A DNA stretch of 64,000 nt, taken from NCBI GenBank assembly GCA_002328165.1, contig DCWS01000077.1:1624-65623 (forward strand). The letters are read 5' to 3'. The notes below the pieces were generated by a model that was not told the origin of the DNA, did no database searches, and saw nothing but the letters and a program-made list of their open reading frames with translations. This DNA comes from Desulfobacteraceae bacterium UBA2156 (GTDB taxonomy: Bacteria > Desulfobacterota > Desulfobacteria > Desulfobacterales > UBA2156). This document shows, one piece after another, positions 82 through 18,778 of the stretch; the first letter of the stretch is position 1; every line of letters starts with the position of its first letter. The translations under genes and the position numbers were made by a program.

Positions 82-981
82 ATGTGCGGAATAGCTGGGT
101 TGATAACCCGGAATAACGAATCCCTTGGAACCGACTTGATCAACATGCTCAAGGAGCTGGTCCACCGAGGTAAAGATGCTACCGGGGTGGCGATTTATGA
201 AAAGCGTAATGATGTTCAGCTCAGGGCCTCGATGACCAGTGCGACCCATGAAAAAAGTCTCTTGGACATCATCCAGACTTATGGCAGGGTCACCCATTCA
301 AGAAGCTATCCCGGTTCCGGGATTTATACCTTTTTTGAAGGGTCCCTCGACATGGACCCGAACCAGGTGAGTCAAATGCATTGGGACATCGACTCCCATC
401 CCGAGCTTTGTGTCCATTCCATCGGCCGACAGCTCAAAGTATATAAGGATCAAGGATCAGCCGAGGACCTTCAAAAGTCTCACGAAATCCAGGTTGGCAG
501 GGGTACTCATGGCATCGGTCATGTACGGCTGGCCACGGAAAGCGTAGAGAACGTCAATTTTTCCCACCCGTATGTGTCATATCTTTACCCGGAGCTCTCC
601 CTTGTTCACAATGGCCAATTCACCAATTACTTCAACATGAGAAGGCGTCTTGAAAACAAGGGCATCCGGTTCAAAACTGCCAATGACACGGAAGTGGCCG
701 CCCACTTCATCGCATACGAGATGAAGGAGAATGGATATGACCTGGAGGGGGCGATTCATCTGGCGCTGGATACCTTTGATGGGATTTTTACCATTCTGGT
801 TGCTACGACCGACCGGATCGGGGCGTTTCGGGATCGGTTGGCGTTCAAGCCGGTTGTGGTTTATGAAAAAGAGGACGGCACTGTTCTCTTCGGGTCGGAG
901 CAGATCGCTTTAACCCCCATTGTTTCCGATGTCTATGCCACGGAGATGGAGCCAGGAGGAGTGAAGGTATGGTCCGTTTAG
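82..981 (+). CDS. Class-II (Ntn) glutamine amidotransferase subunit, glutamate-synthase domain-1-like (GlxB/MgsA type)
   Basis: 299-aa ORF beginning MCGIAGL (nucleophile Cys directly after Met). HGIGHVRLAT and VHNGQFTNY motifs are typical of PurF/GltB-type amidotransferases. Overlaps the next ORF by 13 nt. Confidence 0.8.
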   Translation: MCGIAGLITRNNESLGTDLINMLKELVHRGKDATGVAIYEKRNDVQLRASMTSATHEKSLLDIIQTYGRVTHSRSYPGSGIYTFFEGSLDMDPNQVSQMHWDIDSHPELCVHSIGRQLKVYKDQGSAEDLQKSHEIQVGRGTHGIGHVRLATESVENVNFSHPYVSYLYPELSLVHNGQFTNYFNMRRRLENKGIRFKTANDTEVAAHFIAYEMKENGYDLEGAIHLALDTFDGIFTILVATTDRIGAFRDRLAFKPVVVYEKEDGTVLFGSEQIALTPIVSDVYATEMEPGGVKVWSV

Positions 982-1673
982 ATATAAATGAGATGAGTAC
1001 ACGGGATGTGAATCAAAAGCTGAGGGAGTTGATCCTGCAAGATGATGAAATTGTGGTCGAAAACCCCCATTCGGTTCATAACTTTGCCACAGCTCTAAAA
1101 GGAAAAGGGACGATTACGGTGGAGGGAAGCACCGGTTTTTACACCGGCGGATTTTTACAGGGCCCCACCGCTATCATCAAAGGGAATACCGGTTGGTATA
1201 CGGGGGACAACATGGGTGACGGAGAGCTCATTGTTGGGATGAACACCGGCAGCAATTGCGCACCCTCCATGGGGGGCGGTACCATTTTGGTTAAAGGGCA
1301 CAGCGGCAGCCGGGCCGGTTGGGGAATGAAAGGCGGCAACCTGATCATCTGCGGCAACGCCGGTTTGTGGAGCGGTAAAATGACCATGGGAGGACGCATC
1401 ATCATTTTGGGCACTGTGGGCCGGGGGATCGGCGAATCGATGTACAGAGGAATTATCCATGTCCTCGATCCAGAAGTCGAAGATAAACTCGGCGGCAATG
1501 TCATGGTCGTACCGATCGAGGATAAGGAGAAGAGAGAAGTAGAAACTCTTTTCAAAAAATACGGCATCGAACAAGCTGTAGATGGTTTTAGAAGCATCGT
1601 TCCGAAGGTTTATGGGCGACATGAGTACTTTTTGTTTAAACCAACCCATCAGCAGACAGGAGCGCAATCATGA
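969..1673 (+). CDS. GXGXG-repeat subunit, glutamate-synthase domain-3-like (GlxC/MgsB type)
   Basis: 234 aa with repeated G-x-G-x-G beta-helix motifs (GSTGFYTGG, GNTGWYTGD, GHSGSRAGW, GNAGLWSGK). ATGA overlap with the next ORF. Confidence 0.8.
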   Translation: MVRLDINEMSTRDVNQKLRELILQDDEIVVENPHSVHNFATALKGKGTITVEGSTGFYTGGFLQGPTAIIKGNTGWYTGDNMGDGELIVGMNTGSNCAPSMGGGTILVKGHSGSRAGWGMKGGNLIICGNAGLWSGKMTMGGRIIILGTVGRGIGESMYRGIIHVLDPEVEDKLGGNVMVVPIEDKEKREVETLFKKYGIEQAVDGFRSIVPKVYGRHEYFLFKPTHQQTGAQS

Positions 1674-2962
1674 CGGAAAAAGAAAGGAAACCAAGGGCAA
1701 AGGATGTCCAAAGGGGTATCTGGAATCAAGAGGCCATCGCCGAGGTCAAATATAAAGCCGATATGGGCAAGCATCGTATCCGTGGCTGTGGGTCTACAAA
1801 AAAATATCCCACCTTTGACGATCTTTTAATCCTGCCTTCCCAGCTATCGCGTCTGTCCATCGATACATATCGTGAGGATTGTAAAACTCAGACGGTTCTC
1901 GGTGCAAGATATGCAAAAAAACCGCTGGTTGTTGAAACACCCATTCTGATTTCAGGCATGTCCTACGGTGCCTTGAGCAAAGAAGCCAAAACCGCCCTGG
2001 CCAAGTCGACCCAGACTGTCGGGACCTCAATTAATAATGGTGAGGGTGGTCTATTGCCCGGGGAAAGTGAGAACTCTTATAAACAGGTCGTTCAAATAAC
2101 GCCTAGCCGAATGGGATTTTCTTTGCGAAACATTGAGGCCGCCGATGCCCTGGAACTGGTAACCGGCATCGGTGCAAAACCCGGTCTTGCCGGTCATCTG
2201 ATGGGAAACAAAATTACAAAGGAAATTGCGGAATTCAGACAGCTGCCCGAAGGTATCGATCTTCACAGCCACCCCCGGCATGGGGACATCTTTGGCGCGG
2301 ACGATATGGTGCTCAAGGTCGAGGAACTCAGAGACGTCACCGACTATGAAATCCCCATTTTTGTAAAGATTGCTGCAGGCCGTGTCAGAGAGGATGTCAA
2401 AATCGCCGTGAAGACCGGCGTGGATGGGATCGTCATCGATGGTGCTGAAGCAGGTACAGGAGCTGCGCCGGTGGTTGCTTCAACTCACCTGGGCATTCCG
2501 ATCCTGCCGGGGTTGGTCCAAGGCGCTCGCGCCCTGGAAGAGATGGGGGTAAAGGAAGAAGTCAGCCTGATTGTTTCGGGCGGTATCAAGGATGGCGCAG
2601 ACGTTGCAAAGGCGTTGGCCCTGGGAGCGGATGCGGTGGCCATCGGGACTGGGGCTATGGTTGCAATGGGGTGTGTGGTTTGTCTCCGGTGTCACGAAGG
2701 AAAGTGTGCATACGGTATCGGCACCCAGGATTCGGAGCTGCGGAAACGGTTGGATACCGATGCCGCTGCCCAACGGGTGGCCAACTATATCCAGGGCATG
2801 ACCTATGAAGCCGTAATCCTTGCGAAGGCTGCGGGCAAAACCGCTTTGGCGAATATGGAGAGGGAAGATCTGCGTTCTCTGACCCTGGAGGCCTGCGCAA
2901 TGACCGGAACGCCCCTGGCCGGAACAAACTTCGCATTTACCGAACCGTTTGGTTTTTTTTGA
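1670..2962 (+). CDS. FMN-dependent glutamate-synthase domain-2-like subunit (GlxD/MgsC type)
   Basis: 430 aa. SGMSYGALSKEAK...NNGEGG and IVIDGAEAGTGAAP motifs of the GltB FMN domain, plus a Cys-rich CVVCLRCHEGKC segment. Confidence 0.8.
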   Translation: MTEKERKPRAKDVQRGIWNQEAIAEVKYKADMGKHRIRGCGSTKKYPTFDDLLILPSQLSRLSIDTYREDCKTQTVLGARYAKKPLVVETPILISGMSYGALSKEAKTALAKSTQTVGTSINNGEGGLLPGESENSYKQVVQITPSRMGFSLRNIEAADALELVTGIGAKPGLAGHLMGNKITKEIAEFRQLPEGIDLHSHPRHGDIFGADDMVLKVEELRDVTDYEIPIFVKIAAGRVREDVKIAVKTGVDGIVIDGAEAGTGAAPVVASTHLGIPILPGLVQGARALEEMGVKEEVSLIVSGGIKDGADVAKALALGADAVAIGTGAMVAMGCVVCLRCHEGKCAYGIGTQDSELRKRLDTDAAAQRVANYIQGMTYEAVILAKAAGKTALANMEREDLRSLTLEACAMTGTPLAGTNFAFTEPFGFF

Positions 2963-2974
2963 GAGTGAACTGAA

Positions 2975-3301
2975 GTGTTGAGCATGCGGATAGACGATCA
3001 TCCCATATTGGGAACGTTTGAAAAAGGCCAGAAGGTTTCCTTCGTATTTGATGATAAAGCGATGGAAGGTTTTGAAGGGGAGCCGATTGCCGTTGCCCTC
3101 CGAAGCAACGGTGTGAAGATCCATCGTTACACGATGAGGAGAAATCAGCCCCGGGGCATTTTCTGTGCCATCGGACGTTGCACAGATTGTATCATGGTCG
3201 TCGACGGCACGCCGAATGTGCGAACCTGTGTGGAGCCGTTGCAGAAAGGGTCGGTGATCCAGACTCAAGTTGGCGCCGGTCCGGAAGTCACGAGGAAGTA
3301 A
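2975..3301 (+). CDS. Small [2Fe-2S] subunit (HcnA / opine-oxidase / sarcosine-oxidase-alpha N-terminal type)
   Basis: 108 aa. GEPIAVAL..NG and CAIGRCTDCIMVVDGTPNVRTC are characteristic of the 2Fe-2S domain that partners HcnB/OoxA-type flavoproteins. The start could also be ATG 2984. Confidence 0.7.
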   Translation: MLSMRIDDHPILGTFEKGQKVSFVFDDKAMEGFEGEPIAVALRSNGVKIHRYTMRRNQPRGIFCAIGRCTDCIMVVDGTPNVRTCVEPLQKGSVIQTQVGAGPEVTRK

Positions 3302-3304
3302 ATC

Positions 3305-4393
3305 GTGCGCAGATGTGAAATGATAAGTGTCGGAGCCGGTCCTGCGGGTTTGGCCGCTGCCACCGAAGCTGCCAGAAACGGTGTTGAAGTTTTAGTTTTT
3401 GACGAAAATGACCGGCCCGGTGGACAGCTTTTTAAACAGATTCATAAATTCTTTGGGTCAGAAGAACATCATGCCAAGGAGCGGGGTTTTGATATCGGAT
3501 ACGGTTTTCTAGAGGAGGCTGAGAAGCTGGGGGTCGAAGTCTCTTTGAGCTCTGTGGTCATGGGAATCTATGAGAACCGGACGATGAATGTCCTGATCAG
3601 AGATCGGATTGAGCAGGTAAGGGCGGAAAAGATTTTGGTTGCCACCGGTGCGTCAGAAAACATGATTCCATTTCCAGGCTGGACTCTGCCGGGCATAATC
3701 GGCGCTGGAGCGGCCCAGACCATTGCCAACATTCATGGAATAAAACCGGGCGAGAATCTGCTTATGGTCGGGTCGGGGAATGTCGGGCTCGTGGTGGCTT
3801 ATCAGATGCTTCAAGCGGGTTGTCAGGTTTCAGCCATCATAGACGCTGCTCCCCGCATCGGTGGATACGAGGTTCATGCGGCCAAGGTGGCTCGATATGG
3901 TGTCCCGTTTTTCATGTCCCATACCATCACGGAGGCGGGCGGAGAAAAATGGATTGAAAGTGCGACGATCAGCCAGGTCGATAAAGAATGGAAGCCGATT
4001 CCAGGGACCGAAAAAAAATTTGAACTCGATACGGTCTGTATTGCAGTGGGTCTCAACCCAATGACGCAGCTCCTGGATATGTTAAGCTGCAAAATGGTAC
4101 CTGTCCCGTCTCTGGGCGGAAGGGTTCCTGCGCATGACCTGGGCCAGGAAACGTCTATTCCGGGTATTTATGTAGCCGGCGATTCGTCCGGTATTGAGGA
4201 GGCCAGCACAGCCATCATCGAGGGCCGGATTGCGGGATTGGCGATTGCGCACAGCTTGGGATATATAGATGACTCGTCCTTTCTGGAACAACGTGATCGG
4301 CAATTCAAAAGCATGGTGGGGCTGCGGAGCGGTTCCCACGGAGAGGCGCGGAAAATAGCAAAAGAATATATAAATGCAGTGATGAAAGGATAG
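3305..4393 (+). CDS. FAD/NAD(P)-binding pyridine-nucleotide-disulfide oxidoreductase subunit (HcnB/OoxA/LhpF-like alpha subunit)
   Basis: 362 aa. Two Rossmann motifs (VGAGPAGLAAA..E and MVGSGNVGLVVA) and a C-terminal GIYVAGD FAD motif. Confidence 0.75.
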   Translation: MRRCEMISVGAGPAGLAAATEAARNGVEVLVFDENDRPGGQLFKQIHKFFGSEEHHAKERGFDIGYGFLEEAEKLGVEVSLSSVVMGIYENRTMNVLIRDRIEQVRAEKILVATGASENMIPFPGWTLPGIIGAGAAQTIANIHGIKPGENLLMVGSGNVGLVVAYQMLQAGCQVSAIIDAAPRIGGYEVHAAKVARYGVPFFMSHTITEAGGEKWIESATISQVDKEWKPIPGTEKKFELDTVCIAVGLNPMTQLLDMLSCKMVPVPSLGGRVPAHDLGQETSIPGIYVAGDSSGIEEASTAIIEGRIAGLAIAHSLGYIDDSSFLEQRDRQFKSMVGLRSGSHGEARKIAKEYINAVMKG

Positions 4394-4397
4394 TTTC

Positions 4398-4901
4398 ATG
4401 TCCAAGGGGATGTCAGAAACAGGATATCTCTCAGATGAAGAGCTGGATAACGGTCCTGGTATCCCTTCCGAGGGGAGACGGCGTAGAGGCCCGGTGGCGG
4501 TGCTTGAATGCATTCAGGATATCCCCTGTAACCCCTGCGAAGCGAGTTGTCCGGAAGGTGCTATCCAGGTGGGTGAGGACATCACCAATCTTCCCCATCT
4601 GTTGGAAGAGAAATGTATCGGATGTCAATCCTGCTTACCCGTTTGCCCTGGACAGGCTATTTTTTTAGTCGATGAAAGTTCGACGGAAGACGTTTCCAGG
4701 GTAACAATGCCATACGAATTTTTGCCATTACCGGAAAAGGAAGAGACTGTCATCGCATTGGATCGTGCCGGGCAGGAATTGGGCGATACAACGGTCATAA
4801 GAGTTCGGAAAACAGATAAAATGGACCATACTGCTTTGGTCACCATTGAGGTGCCGAAAGAATGGTCCATGAGAACCAGAGCGTTTAAATTAAAACGATA
4901 A
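4398..4901 (+). CDS. Ferredoxin-domain protein (2x[4Fe-4S]-type motifs) with extra C-terminal domain
   Basis: 167 aa. CNPCEASCPEGAI and CIGCQSCLPVCPGQAI motifs. Lies directly between the flavoprotein gene and the first shell gene. Confidence 0.7.
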   Translation: MSKGMSETGYLSDEELDNGPGIPSEGRRRRGPVAVLECIQDIPCNPCEASCPEGAIQVGEDITNLPHLLEEKCIGCQSCLPVCPGQAIFLVDESSTEDVSRVTMPYEFLPLPEKEETVIALDRAGQELGDTTVIRVRKTDKMDHTALVTIEVPKEWSMRTRAFKLKR

Positions 4902-4924: not shown

Positions 4925-5206
4925 ATGAACGAACAAGCGCTGGGTATGGTAGAGACCCGAGGACTGGTAGGTGCCATTGAGGCTGCCGATGCCATGGTCA
5001 AAGCCGCAAAAGTGAGATTTGTGGGAAGGGAATTTGTAGGTGGCGGTCTTGTGACGGTTTTCGTCCGCGGGGATGTTGGTGCGGTTAAAGCGGCAACAGA
5101 TGCCGGCGGTGCGGCGGCCGGAAGGGTGGGCGAACTCATCTCAGTACATGTCATCCCAAGGCCTCACGGAGACGTTGAGTTTACTATTCCCAAGGCGGAA
5201 GAATAA
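4925..5206 (+). CDS. BMC-H shell protein (PduA/EutM-type hexamer)
   Basis: 93 aa. [24 protein letters not shown]...[11 protein letters not shown]...VHVIPRP is a canonical single BMC domain. Good RBS (aggagga) upstream. Confidence 0.9.
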
Positions 5207-5334
5207 CCGTTTCACATTGTGTTGAACCGAAACAGCGAGTGCATTCCCCGCAGCTTGTCGAAGTGCAGCGTAGATTTATTCGCCTATGGAGTATCCTTAC
5301 ATTTAAGGTTGCGGAGTTCTTCAATCTTGATTTT

Positions 5335-5355
5335 GAGAGGGGTTCCTCTCTTTTT
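5335..5355 (+). terminator. Hairpin plus T-run inside the BMC operon (possible partial terminator/attenuator after the first BMC-H gene)
   Basis: gagagg-ggtt-cctctc followed by ttttt, within the unusually long 190-bp gap between 5206 and 5398. Confidence 0.4.
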
Positions 5356-5397
5356 CAGGGAAGATTTGCGTTCGGTATTTTGTGAATTCTCAGAGAT

Positions 5398-5700
5398 ATG
5401 GCTCTAAACATTCAGTTTATAACCCACCCCGGACCCGGTGTCATCAGCATCTTGATGACCCGGATGAGCACATCCGGTCGAAAAACGGTTGAAATGATCG
5501 ATTTGAGCGCCGTTGGGCTCGTCCAGGGTCGTTTGATAGATATGATCTACGCGTCTGATATCGCAGAGAAGTCTGCAAACGTTCAGGTTTTTGATCTCAA
5601 AGGAACCTGTCCGCAACATCTGACGATGATCGGTATTTTTGGCGAGATTGCGGCTGTGAAAGCCGCGCTGGATGCCATATCCGCTGAGGAGGGATTGTAG
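5398..5700 (+). CDS. Circularly permuted single-domain BMC shell protein (EutS/PduU-like)
   Basis: 100 aa. AVGLVQGRLIDMIYASDIAEKSANVQV...GEIAAVKAALDAI aligns by eye to the permuted PduU/EutS order. Confidence 0.65.
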   Translation: MALNIQFITHPGPGVISILMTRMSTSGRKTVEMIDLSAVGLVQGRLIDMIYASDIAEKSANVQVFDLKGTCPQHLTMIGIFGEIAAVKAALDAISAEEGL

Positions 5701-5762: not shown

Positions 5763-6053
5763 ATGATACTCGGTAAAATTGTCGGAGATGTCTGGTCGAC
5801 CAAAAAGAATGACAAAATCCATGCGTTAAGACTTCTCTTTGTCCAGCCCCTGGGGAAGGATTTAACCCCGTGCGGAGAAATGCTGATTGCTGCAGATGAG
5901 ATTGGGGCAGGGATGGGGGAGATGGTAATTGTCACTCAAGGCGCACCGGCCATGCAGGCATTTAACAAAGATTCGTTGATTCCTGTGGATGCCGTGGTGG
6001 TCGGTATTGTCGATAACCTTGAAATACCGGAAAAGCCAGACGCCGACGGATAA
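5763..6053 (+). CDS. BMC-P vertex pentamer (EutN/CcmL family)
   Basis: MILGKIVGDVWSTKK...LLFVQP...IAADEIGAGMGEMVIV..G...VDAVVVGIVD is a typical EutN/CcmL pattern. ATG 5763 is preferred over the TTG at 5757. Confidence 0.85.
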   Translation: MILGKIVGDVWSTKKNDKIHALRLLFVQPLGKDLTPCGEMLIAADEIGAGMGEMVIVTQGAPAMQAFNKDSLIPVDAVVVGIVDNLEIPEKPDADG

Positions 6054-7391
6054 ATGATAAAACAGGAGATTGTAGAAAAAGTCAGGGCCGCAGGCGTCGT
6101 AGGGGCAGGTGGCGCCGGTTTTCCCACCCACGTCAAACTCGAAGCGGATGTTGAAAGGGTGCTCGGGAACGGGGCATCCTGCGAACCGCTTCTGATGAGC
6201 GACCTTTTTTTGGTGGAGAACGAGTCAGAAGATATTCTCAGCGGCCTTTCCATGGTGATGCAGAGCACTGGGGCCGGACGTGGAACCCTCTGTCTCAAAG
6301 AGAAACATTTCGAAGCCTTTGGCACACTGGAAAAAATGATCTCAAAGCACAAAATAAAAGATATCGATATTTTTAGACTGGGTGATTTTTATCCGGCAGG
6401 CGACGAAATGGTTTTGGTCTATGAAGTAATGAATCGGGTGGTGCCTGAGGGTGGCTTCCCGCTACAGGTGGGGGTTGTGGTAAATAATGTTGAATCTCTT
6501 CTCAACATTGCCCGGGCTGTAAAAACCGATAAACCCGTTACCGAGAGATATCTGACCGTTGCCGGGGAGGTGCAAAAAAACTTGGTTGTGAAAGTGCCGG
6601 TCGGTATTTCTGTGGGTGAAGTCATAAACCTTGCCGGCGGTGCAACCATTAGTGATTTTAAAGTTATTGTCGGGGGACCGATGATGGGGCAGGTTGTCAC
6701 CGATCTTTCCACGTCGGTGGACAAGACCACAAGTGGAGTAATTGTTCTACCCATCAATCATAATGTCATTGCCGGCAAAACAGATGATCCGGAAAGAATC
6801 AGACAGATTACCCGTTTGTTTTGTTGCCAGTGTTCGCGGTGCACGGATCTGTGCCCAAGGACACTGCTGGGTCATTCCCTTGAATCCCATAAAATTATGC
6901 GGCAACTAGGGGTCGGGTCCCAGCTGGTCTCCGAGGCGTTGTTAGAGGATGCGCTCATCTGTTCAGAATGCGGCATATGTGAAAAGTTTGCATGTCCGAT
7001 GATGATTTCTCCACGGGAGGTCAATGCACAGATCAAGAGAGAAATGATGGAAAAAGGTGTCGACAGATCTCCCAAAAAGATCGACTATCAACCCTCGGCT
7101 TTCAGAGATGTTCGTAAGATCCCAACCAAAAGGCTTATGGAACGTTTGCAGGTGAGCCGGTACGACCAACACCCTGAAATTTTTACAGGGAAAATAGAGG
7201 TAAAAAAAGCAACGATTCCGTTAAAGCAGCACATTGGAGCACCGGCAATACCTGTGGTTAAAACCGGAGACCGTGTCGATAAGGGAGATCTCGTCGGGGA
7301 GATTCCGAATAAGACATTGGGTGCCAGGGTCCACGCCAGCATCTCCGGTGTGGTGGAATCCGTGGGAACGGACGTTGTAATCCGACAATAA
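6054..7391 (+). CDS. PduS/RnfC-like Fe-S flavoprotein (NADH-binding SLBB-type, two 4Fe-4S motifs)
   Basis: 445 aa. N-terminal GVVGAGGAGFPTHVKL, then CCQCSRCTDLCP and CSECGICEKFACP cluster motifs. Located inside the shell gene block. Confidence 0.8.
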   Translation: MIKQEIVEKVRAAGVVGAGGAGFPTHVKLEADVERVLGNGASCEPLLMSDLFLVENESEDILSGLSMVMQSTGAGRGTLCLKEKHFEAFGTLEKMISKHKIKDIDIFRLGDFYPAGDEMVLVYEVMNRVVPEGGFPLQVGVVVNNVESLLNIARAVKTDKPVTERYLTVAGEVQKNLVVKVPVGISVGEVINLAGGATISDFKVIVGGPMMGQVVTDLSTSVDKTTSGVIVLPINHNVIAGKTDDPERIRQITRLFCCQCSRCTDLCPRTLLGHSLESHKIMRQLGVGSQLVSEALLEDALICSECGICEKFACPMMISPREVNAQIKREMMEKGVDRSPKKIDYQPSAFRDVRKIPTKRLMERLQVSRYDQHPEIFTGKIEVKKATIPLKQHIGAPAIPVVKTGDRVDKGDLVGEIPNKTLGARVHASISGVVESVGTDVVIRQ

Positions 7392-10383: not shown

Positions 10384-10740
10384 ATGCAACAGGCTTTGGG
10401 ATTGATTGAAACAAGAGGGCTGGTGGCTGCCATTGAGGCTGCAGACGCGATGGTTAAAGCTGCCAACGTCAAACTGTTGGGCCGTCAGAAAGTCAAAGGC
10501 GGATTGGTATCTGTCATGATTTCCGGGGATGTGGGTGCTGTTAAAGCAGCTGTCGATGCAGGCTCGGCAGCATGCGGGAAGGTGGGTGAGCTTGTTTCTA
10601 TCCATGTCATCCCCAGGCCGAGAGACGATATTGAGCATATTATTCCTAAAGGACCGCCAGAGGAAAAGCCGGCGGATAAGAAAAAAACACCAGCTCGGAA
10701 GCGGAAACCAAAAAAACATCATAAAAGTCAGGGGAAGTAA
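10384..10740 (+). CDS. BMC-H shell protein with ~30-aa lysine/arginine-rich C-terminal tail
   Basis: 118 aa. Canonical BMC domain ([24 protein letters not shown]...[11 protein letters not shown]...IHVIPRP), then [28 protein letters not shown]. Confidence 0.9.
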
Positions 10741-11331: not shown

Positions 11332-11375
11332 TGCAAAAGATATTTCAACATTCCCCATAAACAACGGGAGAACAG

Positions 11376-12581: not shown

Positions 12582-12595
12582 AAAGATGAGGGATT

Positions 12596-13207
12596 ATGGT
12601 CGAACTCAGGGCTTTTTCCTATATGGATGAATTGCAAAAACAGTTTGTCGGTTACATCAGCACAACTGCCCGTGGGTATTATCCGGTTGCCGGCCAGGCG
12701 GCATTATTTTTAGAAATTGCCCCTGGAATCGAGATCAATTCACTTACGGATGTACTCATGAAAAAAGCGAACGTTCGACCCGGTGCCATGGTCGTGGAAA
12801 GGATCTTTGGCATGTTGGAAGTGCATGCGGATTCCCCGGCGGACGTTCATATGGCAGGTGAAGTGGCATTGGATTACTTGGGACTAAAGGAAGGCGACAG
12901 GCTAAAACCAAAAATATTGGCGACCGAAACCATAGAAAGAATAGAGCCCTATATGAGTCAGATCGTCAACCGCTTTCGGGACGCCAGCATGGTTTTATCA
13001 GATGAAACTCTTTATATCTTAGAATGTGTTCCAGCCGGGTATGCTGGATATGCGGCCAATGAGGCTGAAAAAAAAGCCGATATCAAGTTGATCCACCTCA
13101 CTGTCTTTGGTGCCACCGGCCGGGTCTATTTGGCCGGAACCACCTCCAACATTCAAGCAGCGAAAGAGGTGGCAGAAAGTTCTTTATTGGCATTGGATGG
13201 CAGGTGA
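12596..13207 (+). CDS. BMC-T tandem permuted shell protein, CcmP/CsoS1D-like, paralog 2
   Basis: 203 aa. ELRAFSYMDELQKQF...LEIAPGIEINSLTD...VERIFGMLEVH...DRLKPKI...AANEAEKKA...FGATGRVYLAG. Clear paralog of 9750-10367. Confidence 0.7.
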   Translation: MVELRAFSYMDELQKQFVGYISTTARGYYPVAGQAALFLEIAPGIEINSLTDVLMKKANVRPGAMVVERIFGMLEVHADSPADVHMAGEVALDYLGLKEGDRLKPKILATETIERIEPYMSQIVNRFRDASMVLSDETLYILECVPAGYAGYAANEAEKKADIKLIHLTVFGATGRVYLAGTTSNIQAAKEVAESSLLALDGR

Positions 13208-13231
13208 AACCGATAAACTCTTTTTGATTTT

Positions 13232-14188
13232 TTGCTTATGAATTCAGCTAAAAAAGATTTATTTGATAAAATTGTCAGGGTCTACCCCAATCTTTCTCCC
13301 AAAAAGAAACGGGTAGCGGATTACATTATCAAAGATCATAAAAAGCTTTTTCTGATGACTGCCAGAGAGATTGCTCAGGAATGCCGGGTCAGTGAGCCAA
13401 CCATTATTCGGTTCACAAACGACCTCGGGTTTTCAGGATATCAGGGGTTTGTTCAGTACATGAAGGGACTCCTCCATATCGAATTGACGGCGGTTGAAAG
13501 ACTGATAAAGGCCAGCCAGCAGTCAGACCAAGCGGATACCCTCGACAAATATTGTCAAAATGCAATACGCAATCTTGAAAATTTACGAAGTTCGATCTCT
13601 AAAAAGGAGCTGAAAAGAGTTGCCAGGGTCATTCATAATGCTGAACAGGTATATGTTGTCGGGTATCGGGCATCGACCACATTGGCTTTTTATTTCGGTT
13701 ATCTCCTCGGTAAAATTCTCGAAAATGTCTTCCTGGATACATCCCTATCCTGGAAACTCATGGATAAAATCGCGCGAAATGGCAAATCAAGCGTTATGTT
13801 TGTTATCGCTTTCCCCAGATATCCGCTGAAAGTTATTCGCCTTCTGGAATATGCCAAAAGATATCGGGTAAAAATCATCGGTCTCAGCGATACACCAAAA
13901 TCCCCCATCATCGCGCTTTCTGATCAATATATTCTTATCGACCTTGAATCGGTGTCATTTATAGATCCTTTTGCCCATATAATTACATATCTTGGCGCCC
14001 TGATTCATGAAATTACTTTTTTAGATCAGCAGCAGGCCATGAAATATCTTTCCAGGTTTGACCATGCTGCAAAATCAGGGAAAGAATTCTTCACGGAAGA
14101 AAACGCTGATTTGGAAAAGAAGCAAAAATTCGATCATTCATATCTCACATCATTTTGGCCCGGTGATCACACACATCAACCGGGTTAG
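13232..14188 (+). CDS. RpiR/MurR-family transcriptional regulator (HTH + SIS domain)
   Basis: 318 aa. N-terminal LSPKKKRVADYIIKD...TAREIAQECRVSEPTIIRF HTH_6 pattern, followed by a SIS-like region (VYVVGYRAS...). Confidence 0.8.
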   Translation: MLMNSAKKDLFDKIVRVYPNLSPKKKRVADYIIKDHKKLFLMTAREIAQECRVSEPTIIRFTNDLGFSGYQGFVQYMKGLLHIELTAVERLIKASQQSDQADTLDKYCQNAIRNLENLRSSISKKELKRVARVIHNAEQVYVVGYRASTTLAFYFGYLLGKILENVFLDTSLSWKLMDKIARNGKSSVMFVIAFPRYPLKVIRLLEYAKRYRVKIIGLSDTPKSPIIALSDQYILIDLESVSFIDPFAHIITYLGALIHEITFLDQQQAMKYLSRFDHAAKSGKEFFTEENADLEKKQKFDHSYLTSFWPGDHTHQPG

Positions 14189-14218
14189 GAACAAGTGCTG
14201 AAACCCCGGGAGATCGGC

Positions 14219-15694
14219 ATGCGTCTTGATAAAGGACAAATCGAACAAATAGTTGAACAAGTCGTTAGATGTCTTCAGGCAGAAGGCCCCAAACGGTTGG
14301 ATTCTTTGAGAAACTCTACGGGATATAGCGGGATAGCAGATGGTGTCTTCCAGGACATGGAAGATTGTATCCAAGCCGCTTCCACCGCTCAAAAAAGACT
14401 GTTGGCTCTGCCGTTAACCGTTCGTCAGGAAATCATCCGAGCATTGCGCAGGGTTGGTATCTCCAATGCCGAAACGTATGCCCGACTGGAATTTGAAGAG
14501 ACGAGATTGGGCAAGCTTGAAGATAACGCGAAAAAAAATCTATCCGCATGCGAAGTCCCGGGCATGGAGGATCTTTCCCCTGAGGTCTATACCGGTGATA
14601 AAGGGGTAACCATAATTGAACGAATTCCTTTTGGTGTGATCGCTTCGATAAATCCAATAACCAACGGCTCACCGACGATCCTGCATAATGCTATCATGAT
14701 GTTATCTGGCGGCAACACAGTAGTGAATAACCCCCATCCCAAAACGTGGGGCGTGGCATCCAGGGTGATCAAGGATCTGAACAAAGCGGTCGTTGAGGCC
14801 GGTGGGCCACCGAACTCTATTTGCAGTCTTGAGGAACCATCGGTCGAGTCGGCCCAAAAGTTGATGACACATCCCGGTATAAGAATGATTGCGGTTACCG
14901 GCGGGCACGGGGTTGTGGCATTTGCCACCCAGACCGGAAAACGGGTTATTGCGGGCGGACCTGGGAATCCACCGGTGGTGGTCGATGAAACCGCTGACCT
15001 GAAACGGGCTGCAAAGTCTATCATCGAAGGAGCATCCTTCTCCAACTGTATTGCCTGCTCAAGTGAAAAAGAGATTTTTGTCGTTGAACCGGTGGCTGAC
15101 CGGCTGAAGGAACTGCTGAAGGATTACGGCGCCTTCGAGATCACAGCGGCACAGGGTGAAGAATTGATCAAACATATATTTACGGAAATCAAAGCACCCG
15201 GAGAACCGGGGCTCATCAACATGGATTTTATCGGCCGGTCACCCCGAACGATTTTAAAATCGATCGGTCTGGAAGTGGGTCCTGCCGTAAAGATAGCCAT
15301 TTTGGAAACCGATCGAAACCACCCCCTTGTTTGGACCGAACAGATCATGCCGGTTTTGCCGTTTATCCGTTGCCAGGATGCTGATGACGCCATAGGAGCA
15401 GCGATCGCCGCTGAACAGGGATACGGCCACACAATGGCCATTCATTCCAACAACCTGGAAAACATAAAAAAAATGGCCGGTATGGCCAAATGTGCCGCAT
15501 TTGTTAAAAATGGGTCCTGCGGTCTGGCAAGCGTTGGTGTTTCCGGAGAGGGGTATATCTCAATGCATATTGCGACCAACGGCGAAGGACAGACTCGACC
15601 AAGGACTTTTACCTTGATTAGACGCTGTGTCCTCTCAAACGATTTTCGATATCGTTTTGGGGCGGAGGTCCAGGGCCAATCGAAAACGGAATAG
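14219..15694 (+). CDS. CoA-acylating aldehyde dehydrogenase (PduP/EutE type) with N-terminal encapsulation-peptide-like helix, copy 1
   Basis: GGPGNPPVVVDETAD, catalytic-Cys region SFSNCIACSSEKE, and N-terminus MRLDKGQIEQIVEQVVRCL. ATG 14219 has a GGGAGA RBS and is preferred over GTG 14195. Confidence 0.85.
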   Translation: MRLDKGQIEQIVEQVVRCLQAEGPKRLDSLRNSTGYSGIADGVFQDMEDCIQAASTAQKRLLALPLTVRQEIIRALRRVGISNAETYARLEFEETRLGKLEDNAKKNLSACEVPGMEDLSPEVYTGDKGVTIIERIPFGVIASINPITNGSPTILHNAIMMLSGGNTVVNNPHPKTWGVASRVIKDLNKAVVEAGGPPNSICSLEEPSVESAQKLMTHPGIRMIAVTGGHGVVAFATQTGKRVIAGGPGNPPVVVDETADLKRAAKSIIEGASFSNCIACSSEKEIFVVEPVADRLKELLKDYGAFEITAAQGEELIKHIFTEIKAPGEPGLINMDFIGRSPRTILKSIGLEVGPAVKIAILETDRNHPLVWTEQIMPVLPFIRCQDADDAIGAAIAAEQGYGHTMAIHSNNLENIKKMAGMAKCAAFVKNGSCGLASVGVSGEGYISMHIATNGEGQTRPRTFTLIRRCVLSNDFRYRFGAEVQGQSKTE

Positions 15695-15704
15695 ATGGTA
15701 TGTT

Positions 15705-17141
15705 ATGGATATTGATGAAAAACAGATAGAACAGATCGTAGGGATGGTTCTGGAAAGATTATCTCCATCTGATCAGAAAATTTCTCCTGATCGATCTTTT
15801 GAAAAAGGAGATGGTGTTTTTAGAGAAATGGAGGATGCGATCCATGCGGCGGTGACTGCGCAAAAGCAATTGGTCGGTCTGCCCTTGGCCACACGTGAAA
15901 AAATTGTTCAGGGCATTCGAGATGTTTGCTGGAACAATCGTAAAGAATATGGTCGCATGGAGTTAGAGGAGACCGATATCGGAGCGAAGGAAGGAACTGT
16001 CCTGAAATTGGAAGTGGCGTGCGGTGTTCCGGGTCTTGAAGACTTGACGCCAGAGGTCTTTACGGGGGACCGGGGAATTACCGTTATAGAGAGCATCCCC
16101 GTCGGAGTCATTGCTTCTATCAACGCGGTGACTAATGCTGCGCCGAGCATCGTCAGTAACGCTATCCTGATGCTGGCTGGTGGCAACACTGTGGTCAACA
16201 ACCCCCACCCCAAAACCAAAGTTATTTCCGCCTGCGTGGTTCGTGATATCAATCAAGCCGTCGCCGATTGTGGCGGGCCGCCCAACTGTGTGAGCACCGT
16301 CGAAAACCCGGACATCCCCTCTGCGCAGCATCTGATGACCCACCCCCAGATCAATTTGATTGCGGTAACAGGCGGGCATCGGGTGGTTGAATTTGCCACT
16401 CAAACCGGCAAACGTGTCATCGCAGGCGGGCCTGGAAATCCACCGGTGGTGGTCGATGAAACCGCCGATTTAGATAATGCCGCCCAGTGTATTGTTCGGG
16501 GTGCTTCTTTGAGCAACTGTACCCCTTGTTCCAGTGAAAAAGAAATTTTTGTGGTAAAAACTGTTGCCAACCAATTAAAGGATCTCCTCAAGAAACACGG
16601 TGCATTCGAACTTACTGCTGAACAGGGCAGCGATCTGATTAAAGAGATATTCAAAGAAATTCGACCCGGCAGAGGCCCCAGTGTGATCAATATGGATTAT
16701 ATCGGCAAGCCCCCTCAGGTAATTTTGAAAAGGGCGATCGGACTGGAGATCCCGCCTGACACAAAAATTGCCATTTTGGAAACCGACAAGGAACACCCGC
16801 TCATTTGGACCGAGCAGATCATGCCGATTCTCCCGTTTGTCAGATGCCAGGATGCAGATGAAGCCATGGACATGGGGATTGCGGCTGAACAGGGGATGCG
16901 TCACACCATTGTTTTTCACTCCAATGATTTAAAAAACATCGCACGGATGGCGAGCATAGCCGATGCCTCTCAGTTTATCAAAAACGGGTCATCCATTGCA
17001 GGCCTCGGCGTTGAGGGAGAGGGATTCAAATCTCTGCACATCGCCACCGGCGGGGAAGGATTGACCCGGCCAAGGACATTCACGCTGGTCAGACGGTGTA
17101 TCCTCACCGATGATTTTCGATATCGGTTTGGGTCATTATGA
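15705..17141 (+). CDS. CoA-acylating aldehyde dehydrogenase (PduP/EutE type) with N-terminal encapsulation-peptide-like helix, copy 2
   Basis: Tandem paralog, roughly 60 percent identical by eye. GGPGNPPVVVDETAD, SLSNCTPCSSEKE, and N-terminus MDIDEKQIEQIVGMVLERL. ATG 15705 lies just after the copy-1 stop. Confidence 0.85.
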   Translation: MDIDEKQIEQIVGMVLERLSPSDQKISPDRSFEKGDGVFREMEDAIHAAVTAQKQLVGLPLATREKIVQGIRDVCWNNRKEYGRMELEETDIGAKEGTVLKLEVACGVPGLEDLTPEVFTGDRGITVIESIPVGVIASINAVTNAAPSIVSNAILMLAGGNTVVNNPHPKTKVISACVVRDINQAVADCGGPPNCVSTVENPDIPSAQHLMTHPQINLIAVTGGHRVVEFATQTGKRVIAGGPGNPPVVVDETADLDNAAQCIVRGASLSNCTPCSSEKEIFVVKTVANQLKDLLKKHGAFELTAEQGSDLIKEIFKEIRPGRGPSVINMDYIGKPPQVILKRAIGLEIPPDTKIAILETDKEHPLIWTEQIMPILPFVRCQDADEAMDMGIAAEQGMRHTIVFHSNDLKNIARMASIADASQFIKNGSSIAGLGVEGEGFKSLHIATGGEGLTRPRTFTLVRRCILTDDFRYRFGSL

Positions 17142-17154
17142 CCGTTACCTCCAA

Positions 17155-17586
17155 ATGGGGAACCGCATGGCTATGGACTTAATGAAGAGAGAAAATTTTT
17201 CATCCGGTGCACCTTTGGAAGAAAAAATCGGATACAGCCGGACGGTAAAAATTGGAAATCTTGTATTTATAGGCGGTACAACCACCACCAATTCAAAAGG
17301 GATAGTGGAGGGTGAAGGGGATGCCTACCTTCAGACCAGGATCATACTCGAGAAGATCGAAAAGGCACTGAAAAAGGCAGGAGCCAGACTTTCAGAAGTA
17401 TACCGGGTCCGCATATATGTTACCGATATCAGTCGTTCAGAGGAATACATGCGGGCTTATTCCGAATTTTTCAAAAAGGTTAAGCCAGTTACCATTTTGG
17501 CAGAAGTGAAAGCCTTGGTTCGACCCGCTCATCTGGTGGAGATCGAAGCCGATGCCATTATCGGCTCATATCTTGTGCGCAAATAA
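17155..17586 (+). CDS. RidA/YjgF/L-PSP-family enamine/imine deaminase
   Basis: ~143 aa. GYSRTVKIGNLVFIGGTT...RIYVTD...ILAEVKAL..P..LVEIEADA is the RidA-family pattern. The start among the 17155-17182 ATGs is uncertain. Confidence 0.75.
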   Translation: MGNRMAMDLMKRENFSSGAPLEEKIGYSRTVKIGNLVFIGGTTTTNSKGIVEGEGDAYLQTRIILEKIEKALKKAGARLSEVYRVRIYVTDISRSEEYMRAYSEFFKKVKPVTILAEVKALVRPAHLVEIEADAIIGSYLVRK

Positions 17587-17650
17587 GAACTCAAGTTTCG
17601 CATCTGATATTTTGAGAAAAGCCGCATCAGGCGTATACCTTGGAAGGCCG

Positions 17651-18778
17651 ATGAAACTCCTTGAGCCTACAGAAATAAAGGGTTTACACTTGCCCAATCG
17701 TTTTATCCGTTCTGCCACATGGGAGGGATTGGCCGACGGGGATGGCGCTTGTACACCTGAGCTTGTGGATTTGATGCTCAAACTTGTCAAAGGGGGTGTT
17801 GGCTTGATCATTACCGGTCACACCTATGTCTCTTCAGCCGGGCAGGCCACGCCCTGGCAACTGGGCCTTTACAAAGACAGCCTCATTGAGGGTCTAAAAG
17901 AAATGACCGAGGCGGTTCATCGCGAAGGCGGCAAAATCATTCTCCAGCTGGCCCACGGCGGTCTCATGGCCAGATCCGAATTAACCGGCACCGCCCCTCA
18001 AGGGCCCTCTTCTGAAAAAGGTCAGGATAATGATCCGGGTCGGGGAATGGCCATAGATGAAATTGAGGAAACGATAGCGGCATTTGGCCAGGCGGCCAGA
18101 AGGGCAAAAACAGCAGGCTTTGACGGTGTTCAGATCCATTCAGCCCATGGATATCTTCTCAATCAGTTTCTTTCACTGGCCTTCAACCTACGGGAGGACA
18201 AATACGGGGGATCCATAGAGAATCGCGCCAGAGCGCTTTTGGAAGTCTACCATAGCATCCGGCGGGCGGTGGGCCGTTATTATCCGATCTTGGTCAAGAT
18301 CAACTCCGAAGATTTTATGGAGAGGGGTCTAATCTTAAGCGATGTTATTCGTATTGCTGCCTTGCTGGACCATGCGGGTGTGGATGCAATCGAAGTGAGC
18401 GGCGGAACCTTTGTGTCGGGGCAACTGGGTCCCTGTCGGAACAAAATCATCTTTGAACGGGATCAGGCTTACTTTCGGAAGGCAGCCCGATTGCTAAGGG
18501 CGGCAATTAAGGCGCCGGTGATCCTGGTTGGGGGTATCCGTTCGTATCTTTTGGCGGAACGGCTGATGGTTGAAGGAGTAGCCGATTATATTTCCTTGTG
18601 CCGGCCGTTTATTCGCGAACCCTGGTTAATCAAACGGTGGGTGTCGGGTGATCTTCGAAATGCCACATGTATTTCATGTAACGCGTGTTTCGGTCCGGCC
18701 ATGTCCGGTAAAGGCATTTATTGTGTGGAGGATAGAAAAATCGAGATGCGTGGCAAAAGAAAAGCTTCACCTTATTAA
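17651..18778 (+). CDS. Old-Yellow-Enzyme-family NADH:flavin oxidoreductase with Cys-rich C-terminus (FadH/TMADH N-terminal-module-like)
   Basis: 375 aa. NRFIRSATWEG, IILQLAHGG, GFDGVQIHSAHGYLLNQFLS...R.D.YGGS. C-terminal CISCNACFGPAMSGKGIYC. Confidence 0.8.
   Translation: MKLLEPTEIKGLHLPNRFIRSATWEGLADGDGACTPELVDLMLKLVKGGVGLIITGHTYVSSAGQATPWQLGLYKDSLIEGLKEMTEAVHREGGKIILQLAHGGLMARSELTGTAPQGPSSEKGQDNDPGRGMAIDEIEETIAAFGQAARRAKTAGFDGVQIHSAHGYLLNQFLSLAFNLREDKYGGSIENRARALLEVYHSIRRAVGRYYPILVKINSEDFMERGLILSDVIRIAALLDHAGVDAIEVSGGTFVSGQLGPCRNKIIFERDQAYFRKAARLLRAAIKAPVILVGGIRSYLLAERLMVEGVADYISLCRPFIREPWLIKRWVSGDLRNATCISCNACFGPAMSGKGIYCVEDRKIEMRGKRKASPY

Follow-up and report, generated by a model that had tools for sequence, protein, structure and literature searches.

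The window analysed here is a stretch of 64,000 nucleotides from the Desulfobacteraceae bacterium UBA2156 assembly (contig DCWS01000077.1, positions 1,624 to 65,623), and it holds nearly the whole of a bacterial microcompartment (BMC) operon of an uncultured marine Desulfobacterales bacterium, of the catalogued type MIC6. By examining the gene content of this operon, the residue patterns of its enzymes and its relatives in other genomes and metagenomes, we hypothesize, with a probability of roughly one in two, that its signature chemistry turns an amine into an aldehyde by way of gamma-glutamylation. The gene map (Table 1) was drawn from a listing of open reading frames (ORFs) and from Pfam and NCBIfam scans of the window ORFs. 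Between positions 82 and 18778 all credible genes lie on the + strand and the widest intergenic gap is 191 bp (5206-5398). A sequence-only reading of this DNA had described a one-strand operon with seven shell genes, EutJ- and PduS-like genes and two aldehyde dehydrogenases, a description that the ORF list and the domain scans reproduced. It had also described a metabolosome-type operon that lacks a canonical signature enzyme, and this holds both in the window ORFs scanned and in the 10 kb upstream: no B12 dehydratase, ethanolamine ammonia-lyase, glycyl-radical enzyme, RuBisCO or class II aldolase is found among the former, and no canonical signature enzyme in the latter.

The upstream sequence was taken from the same contig in Tara Oceans assemblies (locus L018), where the gene for a 445-aa Gln-synt_C protein (L018:8556-9893) lies directly 5' of the gene at 82, on the same strand. 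The operon start, which the sequence-only reading had put at or beyond the left edge of the window, is accordingly beyond the edge and not at 82 itself. On the 5' side of this glutamine synthetase-like (GS-like) gene there is about 1 kb in which a 58-codon ORF is the sole ORF and Rfam gives no match; divergently oriented, unrelated genes come next, so that the GS-like gene is the first gene of the operon. An Rfam scan of the window and of L018 revealed no riboswitch or leader before the operon, and a promoter and terminator consensus scan of positions 12500-23200 gave counts within shuffle expectation, so that the operon boundaries are not definable in that way.

MIC6, in which MIC stands for a metabolosome with an incomplete core, was described from three loci of anaerobic Deltaproteobacteria and was assigned no function (Sutter et al. 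2021, Nat Commun 12:3809, Supplementary Data 2, PMC8217296). Its shell comprises two BMC-H proteins, one BMC-P, two BMC-Tdp of the CcmP clade, a PduT-type BMC-Ts and a GrpU-type BMC-Hp; its cargo includes a pfam04324 2Fe-2S protein and a pfam01266 oxidoreductase with a BMC-specific C-terminal extension of 30 amino acids (aa) carrying a conserved motif of four cysteines, and its aldehyde dehydrogenase (AldDh) is described as bearing an N-terminal encapsulation peptide (PMC8217296). The operon in the window resembles MIC6 in its full shell inventory, in its PF04324 protein and in its PF01266 protein with a four-cysteine tail, and its Ts (183 aa) and Tdp (205 aa) proteins are identical in length to those of the MIC6 representative, Desulfobacteraceae 4484_190.3. 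The host clade, anaerobic Desulfobacteraceae, is the same as well, identical proteins being named 'MAG: Desulfobacterales bacterium' (MAG, metagenome-assembled genome). No conflict with MIC6 membership was found on the points compared. The question raised from the sequence alone, whether the gene set matches a catalogued but uncharacterised type, is thus answered by MIC6, in which the DAO-family and 2Fe-2S proteins were already flagged. The catalogue text is silent on the GS-like ligase, the glutamate synthase-like trio of genes that follows it, and the Fer2_4, Pyr_redox_2, Fer4, Rid and transporter genes; it also counts three loci, whereas the scans made here found nine in genomes and, with shell genes present, at least 29 in metagenomes.

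The ligase, the glutamate synthase-like trio and the split dehydrogenase

The GS-like protein falls below the cutoff of every GS-family NCBIfam model, with scores of 316 against 470 for type III (TIGR03105), 293 against 429 for GlnA and 267 against 650 for gamma-glutamylputrescine synthetase. In GS, Asp50' binds and deprotonates ammonium, and a flap Glu is catalytic. HMMER alignments to solved structures place Ala at Asp50' and Phe at the flap Glu (Glu327 in Salmonella typhimurium numbering), the protein reading 'nfAqai' and 'vpdsFap' where GS reads 'mfDgss' and 'vpgyEap'; the glutamate-methylamine ligase 9qur has Ala and Trp at the same aligned positions. Gamma-glutamylmethylamide synthetase (GmaS) lacks both ammonium-specific GS residues and has Ala48' and Trp300 instead; its Asp177, Glu186 and Arg312 are strictly conserved catalytic residues, and Tyr174 and Gln175 belong to a polar methylamine pocket (PMC7948447). 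When the RhGmaS numbering was transferred by eye onto the 9qur alignment, the GS-like protein was found to retain Glu186 and Asn188 and to have Leu, Cys and Asn at Tyr174, Gln175 and Asp177, respectively. On these residue patterns we conclude that it would work as a gamma-glutamyl-amine ligase, for a possibly less polar amine.

The trio at 82-2962 encodes an N-terminal nucleophile (Ntn) amidotransferase, a GXGXG subunit and a flavin mononucleotide (FMN) subunit. The amidotransferase begins MCGI, and its nucleophile Cys is therefore present. Ligase and trio match glnT-glxB-glxC-glxD over their full lengths, in the order found in Cupriavidus; the sizes of the trio (299, 234 and 430 aa) compare with 301-303, 228-234 and 442-451 aa in GlxBCD examples, and the FMN subunit shows 47-49% full-length identity with the GlxD proteins encoded on plasmids of Rhizobium etli and Cupriavidus metallidurans. 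The gene neighbourhood of GlxD in R. etli consists of glxB, glxC, glxD, glnT, purU and soxBDAG, while on Cupriavidus p1 the order is glnT, amidotransferase, glxC and FMN subunit, next to purU and to genes for dimethylamine monooxygenase and an ammonium transporter. We take these to be the gmaS-mgsABC-mgd clusters of the N-methylglutamate pathway. The trio, which the sequence-only reading had proposed as an alternative aldehyde generator, instead forms with the upstream ligase a gmaS-mgsABC-like module whose conservation equals that of the shell. Source annotations of the locus proteins ('glutamine synthetase', 'glutamate synthase domain-containing protein', 'thioredoxin reductase', 'sarcosine oxidase subunit beta') are generic and give no hint at the level of KO terms.

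The FMN subunit also carries the motif CvvClrChegkC, and this C-x2-C-x2-C-x4-C pattern is common to the window and to the related loci L039 and L091. Three of its four cysteines align with the C-x5-C-x4-C of the glutamate synthases 7mfm and 2vdc, the motif that ligates the 3Fe-4S cluster there; in the two GlxD examples, from R. etli and Cupriavidus, a Cys-free insertion stands in place of the iron-sulfur (Fe-S) motif. Its full-length scores with GlxD/MgsC are 336-341 bits and its partial match to the GltB model gives 174 bits, figures obtained by different scoring methods. Because the glutamate synthase Fe-S cysteines are kept, the trio is probably electron-coupled like glutamate synthase, and not redox-neutral like N-methylglutamate synthase.

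The third component is a flavin/Fe-S dehydrogenase in which the Pyr_redox_2 protein represents the N-terminal two thirds of a SoxA/HcnB/OoxA-type alpha subunit, this subunit being split into two genes about 6 kb apart. The soxA model is covered only to approximately position 600 of 996, without the folate-binding C-terminal third, and Pfam scans detected no GCV_T, SoxD or SoxG domain in any locus protein. The subunit repertoire of the HcnABC, OoxAB, LhpBEF, PDH and Sox class, recognized in the sequence-only reading, is sound at the domain level (Fer2_4, Pyr_redox_2, BFD, A3 and DAO are all present). With model scores of 160 bits for ThiO and 128 bits for soxB, the DAO subunit finds its best solved relative in 1y56_B, followed by glycine oxidase, dimethylglycine dehydrogenase and SoxB. 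Its DAO domain ends at residue 350 of 401, and the protein ends ...ECACKGNAACTTVTAICPNKREWLKSI; the tail pattern ECxCxGNAxCxTxTAxCPxKREWLK is found in ten of ten orthologs (the window and L001-L009), the four cysteines (ECxCx5Cx6CP) being invariant.

In the fused alpha subunit of L091, a locus without shell genes, residues 7-366 correspond in alignment to the Pyr_redox_2 protein and residues 382-464 to residues 112-194 of the BFD/A3 piece. Relative to this shell-less fused form, the BFD/A3 piece has about 110 extra N-terminal residues, in which a conserved module is joined by a variable Ala/Pro-rich linker to an amphipathic helix that is itself conserved (ISDEELEAIVxRVIxRF) and is followed by another linker. 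Encapsulation peptides are usually recognised by such a helix flanked by linkers of low conservation. The DAO and BFD/A3 pieces, which carry BMC-specific extensions, probably lie inside the shell. Both aldehyde dehydrogenases are of the PduP/EutE type, above the NF011927 subfamily cutoff; by inspection, the first has the N-terminal amphipathic helix LDKGQIEQIVEQVVRCL, which includes QIEQIVEQVV, and the second the N-terminal helix IDEKQIEQIVGMVLERL, which includes QIEQIVGMVL. Two further relationships were tried and rejected: a small module common to the N-terminus of the BFD/A3 piece and the C-terminus of the TIGR02536-like protein (no BLASTP similarity), and the 167-aa Fer4 protein as the detached ferredoxin domain of the shell-less DAO-ferredoxin fusion (no BLASTP match at E<=1e-3 and >35 bits).

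Among known systems, the N-methylglutamate pathway is similar in having a ligase without the ammonium residues, a GATase/GXGXG/FMN enzyme with equal subunit sizes and the Cupriavidus gene order, a SoxA/SoxB-related dehydrogenase encoded alongside, and aldehyde plus glutamate as the expected product. Identities are modest, however (32-34% for the ligase, 25-33% for the A and B subunits and 47-49% for the C subunit); the catalytic Asp177 of GmaS is replaced by Asn, and the FMN subunit retains Fe-S cysteines unlike proteobacterial MgsC. In addition, the dehydrogenase differs from MgdABCD/SoxABDG in lacking GCV_T, SoxD and SoxG and in being split into five Fe-S-rich polypeptides, and the system in the window has an anaerobic host, a protein shell, CoA-acylating aldehyde dehydrogenases and a tripartite ATP-independent periplasmic (TRAP) transporter. 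HcnABC, the opine oxidase OoxAB, the D-hydroxyproline dehydrogenase LhpBEF and the archaeal L-proline dehydrogenase 1Y56 share with it Fer2_4, Pyr_redox_2 with BFD and A3, and DAO; the system in the window differs from them in its divided alpha subunit, an additional 2x[4Fe-4S] protein, a DAO tail with four cysteines and a BFD/A3 extension that resembles an encapsulation peptide.

In the Puu pathway for putrescine, PuuA is the ligase, PuuB a DAO-family oxidase and PuuC an aldehyde dehydrogenase. The logic is alike, leading from a GS-like ligase through DAO-family oxidation to an aldehyde and on to an aldehyde dehydrogenase; but the ligase stays below the gamma-glutamylputrescine synthetase cutoff given above, no PuuD-type hydrolase is encoded here, the oxidase is a multi-subunit Fe-S dehydrogenase, and the aldehyde dehydrogenase is CoA-acylating and predicted to be encapsulated. 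Glutamate synthase (GltS/GOGAT) for its part shares with the trio the Ntn amidotransferase with Cys1, the FMN domain, the GXGXG domain and the aligned Fe-S cysteines. The trio, however, consists of three small proteins and not of one chain of 1500 aa, its GS-like partner is not ammonia-using, and there is no GltD partner, the adjacent Pyr_redox_2 protein scoring 138 bits to soxA and 65 bits to the GltD model.

Related loci with and without shell genes

A genome scan with the DAO protein identified nine related loci, at 74-98% identity, in MAGs of Desulfobacter, Desulfobacterales and Syntrophobacteraceae; among the 17 genome matches no cultured host that carries the locus was found, and all nine true relatives are MAGs, in a pattern-based scan that can miss relatives. 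All nine loci share one gene order over the stretch covered by each contig, apart from variable genes. This order runs GXGXG, FMN subunit, Fer2_4, Pyr_redox_2, Fer4, BMC-H, Hp, P, PduS, Ts and EutJ, and continues with the TIGR02536-like gene, Tdp, (BMC-H), BFD/A3, DAO, Tdp, RpiR, AldDh, (AldDh), Rid, (OYE) and TRAP, where OYE denotes the old yellow enzyme family. The variable genes, given in brackets, are the second BMC-H, the second aldehyde dehydrogenase and the OYE gene, the last of which is present in L004, L006 and L008 and was not detected in L005 and L009. The locus is common in metagenomes from the sea and from sediments, where more than 120 DAO protein clusters are at least 81% identical to the DAO protein of the window.

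The metagenome scan with the GS-like protein yielded 80 loci at 47-94% identity. The full trio comes next in 48 of the 51 loci with at least 3.2 kb of downstream sequence, and shell genes are found in 29 of the 36 with at least 6.2 kb; the ligase-trio unit is conserved with shell genes over 52-94% GS-like identity. Co-conservation of the flavoenzyme with the shell, whose absence would have refuted the proposal of the sequence-only reading, is tight in the nine genome loci and in dozens of metagenome loci; nor did the other findings that would have counted against that proposal turn up, neither a signature enzyme in the 10 kb upstream nor, in the literature searched, a functional characterisation of the type. 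The order is rearranged in L038 and L039, where BMC-H and BMC-P flank the trio and the GS-like gene has a BMC-T gene on one side and the genes for the aldehyde dehydrogenases on the other; this interleaving with shell genes argues strongly that ligase and trio belong to the organelle system.

Two loci carry the enzymes without a shell. In L091 a TetR gene is followed by genes for a GS-like protein, an amidotransferase, a GXGXG subunit and an FMN subunit (57%, 58%, 62% and 73% identical, respectively) and then by those of the dehydrogenase, which consists of Fer2_4, a fused alpha subunit (Pyr_redox_2, BFD and A3; 489 aa) and a DAO protein fused to a 2x[4Fe-4S] domain (572 aa); on the 3' side of the dehydrogenase lie genes for an aldehyde:ferredoxin oxidoreductase and an ABC-type binding protein. 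L067 is organized like L091 minus the trio. The module is thus linked to CoA-acylating aldehyde dehydrogenases in the shell context and to an aldehyde:ferredoxin oxidoreductase in the shell-less one, and this linkage to two unrelated aldehyde-oxidising enzymes, one per context, points to an aldehyde product and is the best available evidence that the module makes one.

Two other arrangements were observed. Within positions 1-11341 of L099, a GS-like gene of 47% identity lies beside an RpiR regulator gene and a gene of the Octopine_DH family, and the opposite strand carries a different BMC cluster (AldDh, Tdp, EutJ, BMC-H, Ts, PduS and BMC-P); this may be a second BMC type tied to a GS-like ligase. 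Positions 1-11593 of L037 contain the TRAP genes (on the opposite strand), the GS-like gene, the trio, two AldDh genes and the Rid gene, with no shell or dehydrogenase genes between them.

Candidate signature chemistry and its alternatives

In the chemistry that we propose, the GS-like ligase would first join the amine to the gamma-carboxyl of glutamate, using ATP. The trio would process the resulting gamma-glutamyl amide with 2-oxoglutarate, yielding either an N-alkylglutamate, as in N-methylglutamate synthase, or regenerated glutamate, as in glutamate synthase; its Fe-S site is the probable entry point for electrons, in contrast to the proteobacterial N-methylglutamate synthase. The split SoxA/SoxB-type dehydrogenase (2975-4901 and 10741-12581) would then oxidise the C-N bond on the alkyl side, releasing the aldehyde and glutamate or glutamine, and the two PduP/EutE-type dehydrogenases, if encapsulated as predicted, would turn the aldehyde into acyl-CoA. 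NADH and flavin electrons would exit through PduS and the Fe-S-bearing shell proteins of the PduT and GrpU types, and may return to the Fe-S site of the glutamate synthase-like enzyme. The net conversion would be amine + 2-oxoglutarate + ATP to aldehyde + glutamate, followed by aldehyde + CoA + NAD+ to acyl-CoA + NADH.

The middle steps may follow one of two orders. In one, as in the N-methylglutamate pathway, the trio would make an N-alkylglutamate that the dehydrogenase then oxidises; in the other, the dehydrogenase would oxidise the gamma-glutamyl amide to glutamine and aldehyde, and the trio would then act as a GOGAT. The similarity to MgsABC favours the former order and the trio-less locus L067 the latter. 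In either order the two electrons of the dehydrogenase could be used at the Fe-S/FMN site of the trio, which would amount to an ATP-driven amino transfer from the amine to 2-oxoglutarate. A narrower version, which we consider unlikely, is that MIC6 is the anaerobic, shell-enclosed counterpart of the N-methylglutamate pathway, by which sulfate-reducing Desulfobacterales of sediments and oxygen-minimum waters would oxidise methylamine or another small primary amine, with formaldehyde or acetaldehyde released only inside the organelle and electrons cycled through Fe-S shell proteins between the dehydrogenase and the glutamate synthase-like enzyme. If so, it would represent an ATP-driven 'transamination' independent of pyridoxal phosphate and divided between the two sides of a protein shell.

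Several points weigh against the gamma-glutamyl reading. Gene content, the catalogue match, co-conservation, residue patterns and the occurrence of a shell-less version beside another aldehyde-oxidising enzyme are direct observations, and it is from these that we infer every catalytic step, the order of the second and third steps, the encapsulated set, the electron routes and the substrate. The ligase, at 32-34% identity to GlnT, is no close ortholog of GmaS and has Asn at a catalytic Asp that is strictly conserved there. Among solved structures the DAO subunit is closest to 1y56_B, which we take to be the catalytic subunit of the Pyrococcus L-proline dehydrogenase complex, and a substrate that is anionic and does not require gamma-glutamylation, for example an N-substituted amino acid, would be in keeping with the co-conserved TRAP transporter. 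The absence of the trio from L067 may mean that the trio is off the direct route to the aldehyde. The dehydrogenase subunits of BMC and shell-less loci are only 33-39% identical, so that the link to aldehyde:ferredoxin oxidoreductase may not carry over to the BMC operon. Finally, compared with their shell-less versions, neither the GS-like protein nor the trio has terminal extensions specific to the BMC, so that they may lie on either side of the shell, and no phosphotransacylase to recycle CoA is present.

Some of these points would be accommodated by a direct oxidation, the model of the sequence-only reading, which we regard as doubtful: an N-substituted or cyclic amino acid (proline, hydroxyproline, sarcosine, an opine or the like) would be imported by the TRAP system and oxidised in the shell, by the HcnABC/OoxAB/LhpBEF/PDH-type dehydrogenase, to an imine and thence to an aldehyde or semialdehyde, the GS-like and glutamate synthase-like genes merely handling the released amine or ammonia or recycling glutamate. 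The subunit repertoire equals that of the SoxA/SoxB class, the solved relatives of the DAO subunit (1y56_B at 191 bits, then glycine oxidase, dimethylglycine dehydrogenase and SoxB) agree with such a role, and L067 has the dehydrogenase and the ligase without the trio. A GS-like protein that lacks the ammonium-handling Asp and Glu is nevertheless ill suited to ammonia capture, and its strict conservation would have no explanation in this model; ligase and trio equal the shell genes in strictness of conservation and are intermixed with these genes in L038 and L039. Co-conservation of the TRAP system speaks for the import of an amino acid, but its binding protein shows no sign of such a ligand (the best PDB matches, 2zzv, 4pe3 and 2hzk, all score 100 bits or less, from which no ligand can be assigned), and shell-less relatives use an ABC transporter instead. 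The Rid protein offers little help either. In RidA, Arg105 binds the carboxylate of the 2-imino acid substrate; the protein here reads 'kpVT' where the canonical PH0854 reads 'kpAR', having Thr in place of that Arg, as does 3i7t ('pVT'), and it scores 56 bits against the TIGR00004 cutoff of 106. The idea that RidA aids the hydrolysis of an imine or enamine, part of the sequence-only reading, is doubtful for this reason, and Rid is not relied on in any model.

The two other alternatives place the source of the aldehyde elsewhere. It is very improbable that ligase and trio form an ordinary GS-GOGAT nitrogen unit beside the BMC genes, with the aldehyde source encoded elsewhere in the genome, as the catalogue name, which implies an incomplete core and no local signature enzyme, might suggest. 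Source annotations as glutamine synthetase and glutamate synthase, the Fe-S cysteines retained in the FMN subunit and the N-terminal Cys retained in the amidotransferase are in keeping with such a unit; yet Asp50' and the flap Glu are replaced, the FMN subunit scores higher to GlxD/MgsC than to GltB (by different scoring methods), and the unit is conserved with shell genes, is embedded among them in L038 and L039, and in shell-less operons accompanies the SoxAB-like dehydrogenase and an aldehyde:ferredoxin oxidoreductase. We also find it very improbable that the DAO, BFD, Pyr_redox and Fe-S proteins are a GlpA- or ETF-like redox-recycling module that moves electrons with PduS while the aldehyde comes from another source such as the OYE-type flavoprotein. 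Secondary NCBIfam matches of the DAO and BFD proteins to the anaerobic glycerol-3-phosphate dehydrogenase GlpA (92 and 46 bits) and the wealth of the locus in Fe-S carriers and Fe-S-type shell proteins would suit this role, as would a regulator of the RpiR/SIS type, regulators of that type usually sensing sugar phosphates. The best matches of the DAO protein (ThiO 160, soxB 128 and 1y56_B 191 bits) are, however, enzymes that oxidise amines or amino acids, shell-less operons keep the dehydrogenase beside an aldehyde-oxidising enzyme, and the OYE gene is missing from several related loci and thus cannot encode the signature enzyme.

To our knowledge, all characterised metabolosomes make their aldehyde by a lyase, a radical enzyme or an aldolase. 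If the gamma-glutamyl reading is true, the combination of a ligase, a glutamate synthase-like enzyme and a SoxAB-type Fe-S flavoprotein would constitute a new class of encapsulated chemistry and would give the orphan catalogue type MIC6 a function that is directly testable. Small amines, especially methylamines, are traditionally seen as substrates for which sulfate reducers do not compete, and an organelle devoted to amines in Desulfobacterales would have a direct and testable bearing on this view. With its split alpha subunit and its two Fe-S-type shell proteins, the system also lends itself well to work on how electrons cross a protein shell. No functional study of MIC6, or of microcompartments in connection with methylglutamate, sarcosine oxidase or Desulfobacter, was found in the searchable literature; as far as that literature shows, the organelle type is known and the proposed signature pathway has not been described, nor have the Fe-S feature of the trio, the division of the alpha subunit, the occurrence of shell-less operons that carry an aldehyde:ferredoxin oxidoreductase gene, or how abundant the type is.

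Shell, accessory and neighbouring genes

Table 1. Genes of the BMC operon in the window and the matches on which their assignments are based
Feature	Position	Strand	Basis
Ntn (class II) amidotransferase, MgsA/GlxB-like	82-981	+	Pfam GATase_6/7; 299 aa; 29-33% to glxB/mgsA full length
GXGXG subunit, MgsB/GlxC-like	969-1673	+	Pfam GXGXG; 234 aa; 25-26% to glxC full length
FMN subunit, MgsC/GlxD-like	1670-2962	+	Pfam Glu_synthase 338 bits; 430 aa
2Fe-2S protein (Fer2_4), 108 aa	2975-3301	+	Pfam; soxA model 10-99, the N-terminus of the SoxA-type alpha subunit
Pyr_redox_2 FAD/NAD-type protein, 362 aa	3305-4393	+	soxA model 168-497, 138 bits; best PDB match 2gag_A
2x[4Fe-4S] ferredoxin-like protein, 167 aa	4398-4901	+	Pfam Fer4_7 etc.; position kept in all related loci
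BMC-H shell protein	4925-5206	+	Pfam BMC 97 bits
Permuted BMC-H, GrpU type per MIC6 description	5398-5700	+	partial Pfam BMC, residues 38-96 vs model 1-59
BMC-P vertex protein	5763-6053 (alternative start 5757)	+	Pfam EutN_CcmL 91.5 bits
PduS-like NADH/FMN/Fe-S electron-transfer protein	6054-7391	+	Pfam Complex1_51K, SLBB, Fer4_17, RnfC_N; RnfC subfamily 247 bits
PduT-type tandem-domain shell protein (BMC-Ts)	7470-8021	+	two BMC domains, 160 bits; best NCBIfam model eut_PduT
EutJ	8021-8872	+	NF011660 312 bits, cutoff 182
TIGR02536-like BMC-associated protein	8860-9663	+	NCBIfam eut_hyp 53 bits, below cutoff; kept in related loci
CcmP-like double-stacking shell protein (BMC-Tdp)	9750-10367	+	NF053796 223 bits; precomputed Pfam CsoS1D_N match
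Second BMC-H, basic Lys/Pro-rich C-terminal tail	10384-10740	+	Pfam BMC 103 bits; missing in some related loci
Fer2_BFD + SO_alpha_A3 piece of alpha subunit	10741-11331	+	Pfam; soxA model 521-596
DAO catalytic (beta) subunit, 401 aa	11376-12581	+	Pfam DAO 242 bits; best PDB match 1y56_B, 191 bits
Second CcmP-like BMC-Tdp	12596-13207	+	NF053796 226 bits
RpiR-family regulator (HTH_6 + SIS)	13232-14188	+	Pfam; in every related locus spanning its position
CoA-acylating aldehyde dehydrogenase 1	14219-15694 (alternative start 14195)	+	NF011927 527 bits, cutoff 403
CoA-acylating aldehyde dehydrogenase 2, paralog	15702-17141 (alternative start 15627)	+	NF011927 516 bits, cutoff 403
Rid-family protein	17167-17586 (alternative start 17110)	+	Pfam Ribonuc_L-PSP; best PDB match 3i7t
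OYE-type FMN protein	17648-18778 (alternative start 17552)	+	Pfam Oxidored_FMN 219 bits; BaiCD/FadH-type N-terminal domains
TRAP transporter DctP (19007-20065), DctQ, DctM	19007-22213	+	Pfam; synteny in L005, L006, L008, L009, L037

The permuted shell protein has the residues CPQH at its presumed pore. The basic tail of the second BMC-H spans residues ~88-118, and tblastn matches to this protein in related loci cover only about 75-80% of its length, so that the tail is poorly conserved. The OYE-type protein has a C-terminal CxxCxxCx11C, a spacing that we take to be typical of the 4Fe-4S site in enzymes of the FadH, BaiCD and TMADH type, and is without the C-terminal Pyr_redox domain of those enzymes. 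The extra N-terminal residues of the Rid and OYE ORFs probably do not belong to the proteins and reflect in-frame start codons farther upstream.

Other genes in the window are housekeeping genes, among them those for S-adenosylhomocysteine hydrolase, MetK, Mrp/Nuo-type antiporter subunits, PBP1, an aminotransferase and ClpB, and a tRNA at 52843-52914 is the sole Rfam match in the window. On the other side of the operon, positions 1-7600 of L018 carry on the opposite strand genes for a dynamin-like GTPase, URO-D, FmdE, molybdenum-cofactor biosynthesis and a MoaA-like radical SAM protein. The genes 3' of the TRAP system (CN_hydrolase, a reductive-dehalogenase homolog, a molybdopterin oxidoreductase and an NAD-kinase fragment) show no synteny with BMC genes in related loci; these genes, which lack synteny apart from a glycine-cleavage P fragment in the near-identical L008, were therefore not counted in the system. 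That fragment is the short ORF at 22314-22673, 93% conserved in L008, which matches only a piece of the glycine-cleavage P protein (model positions 38-114 of 429), while the ORF at 22769-23113 matches only the C-terminal domain of NAD kinase; both may be gene remnants or small stand-alone domains. Farther downstream, a gene for a reductive-dehalogenase-family protein at 24486-25685 (TIGR02486, 214 bits, cutoff 160) is translationally coupled to that of a 763-aa molybdopterin oxidoreductase at 25682-27973, whose best models, Fdh-alpha and PhsA, are both below cutoff. A 77%-identical molybdopterin oxidoreductase is encoded in L096, about 3.4 kb from a TRAP system (DctM 76% identical) and with no shell genes within the locus.

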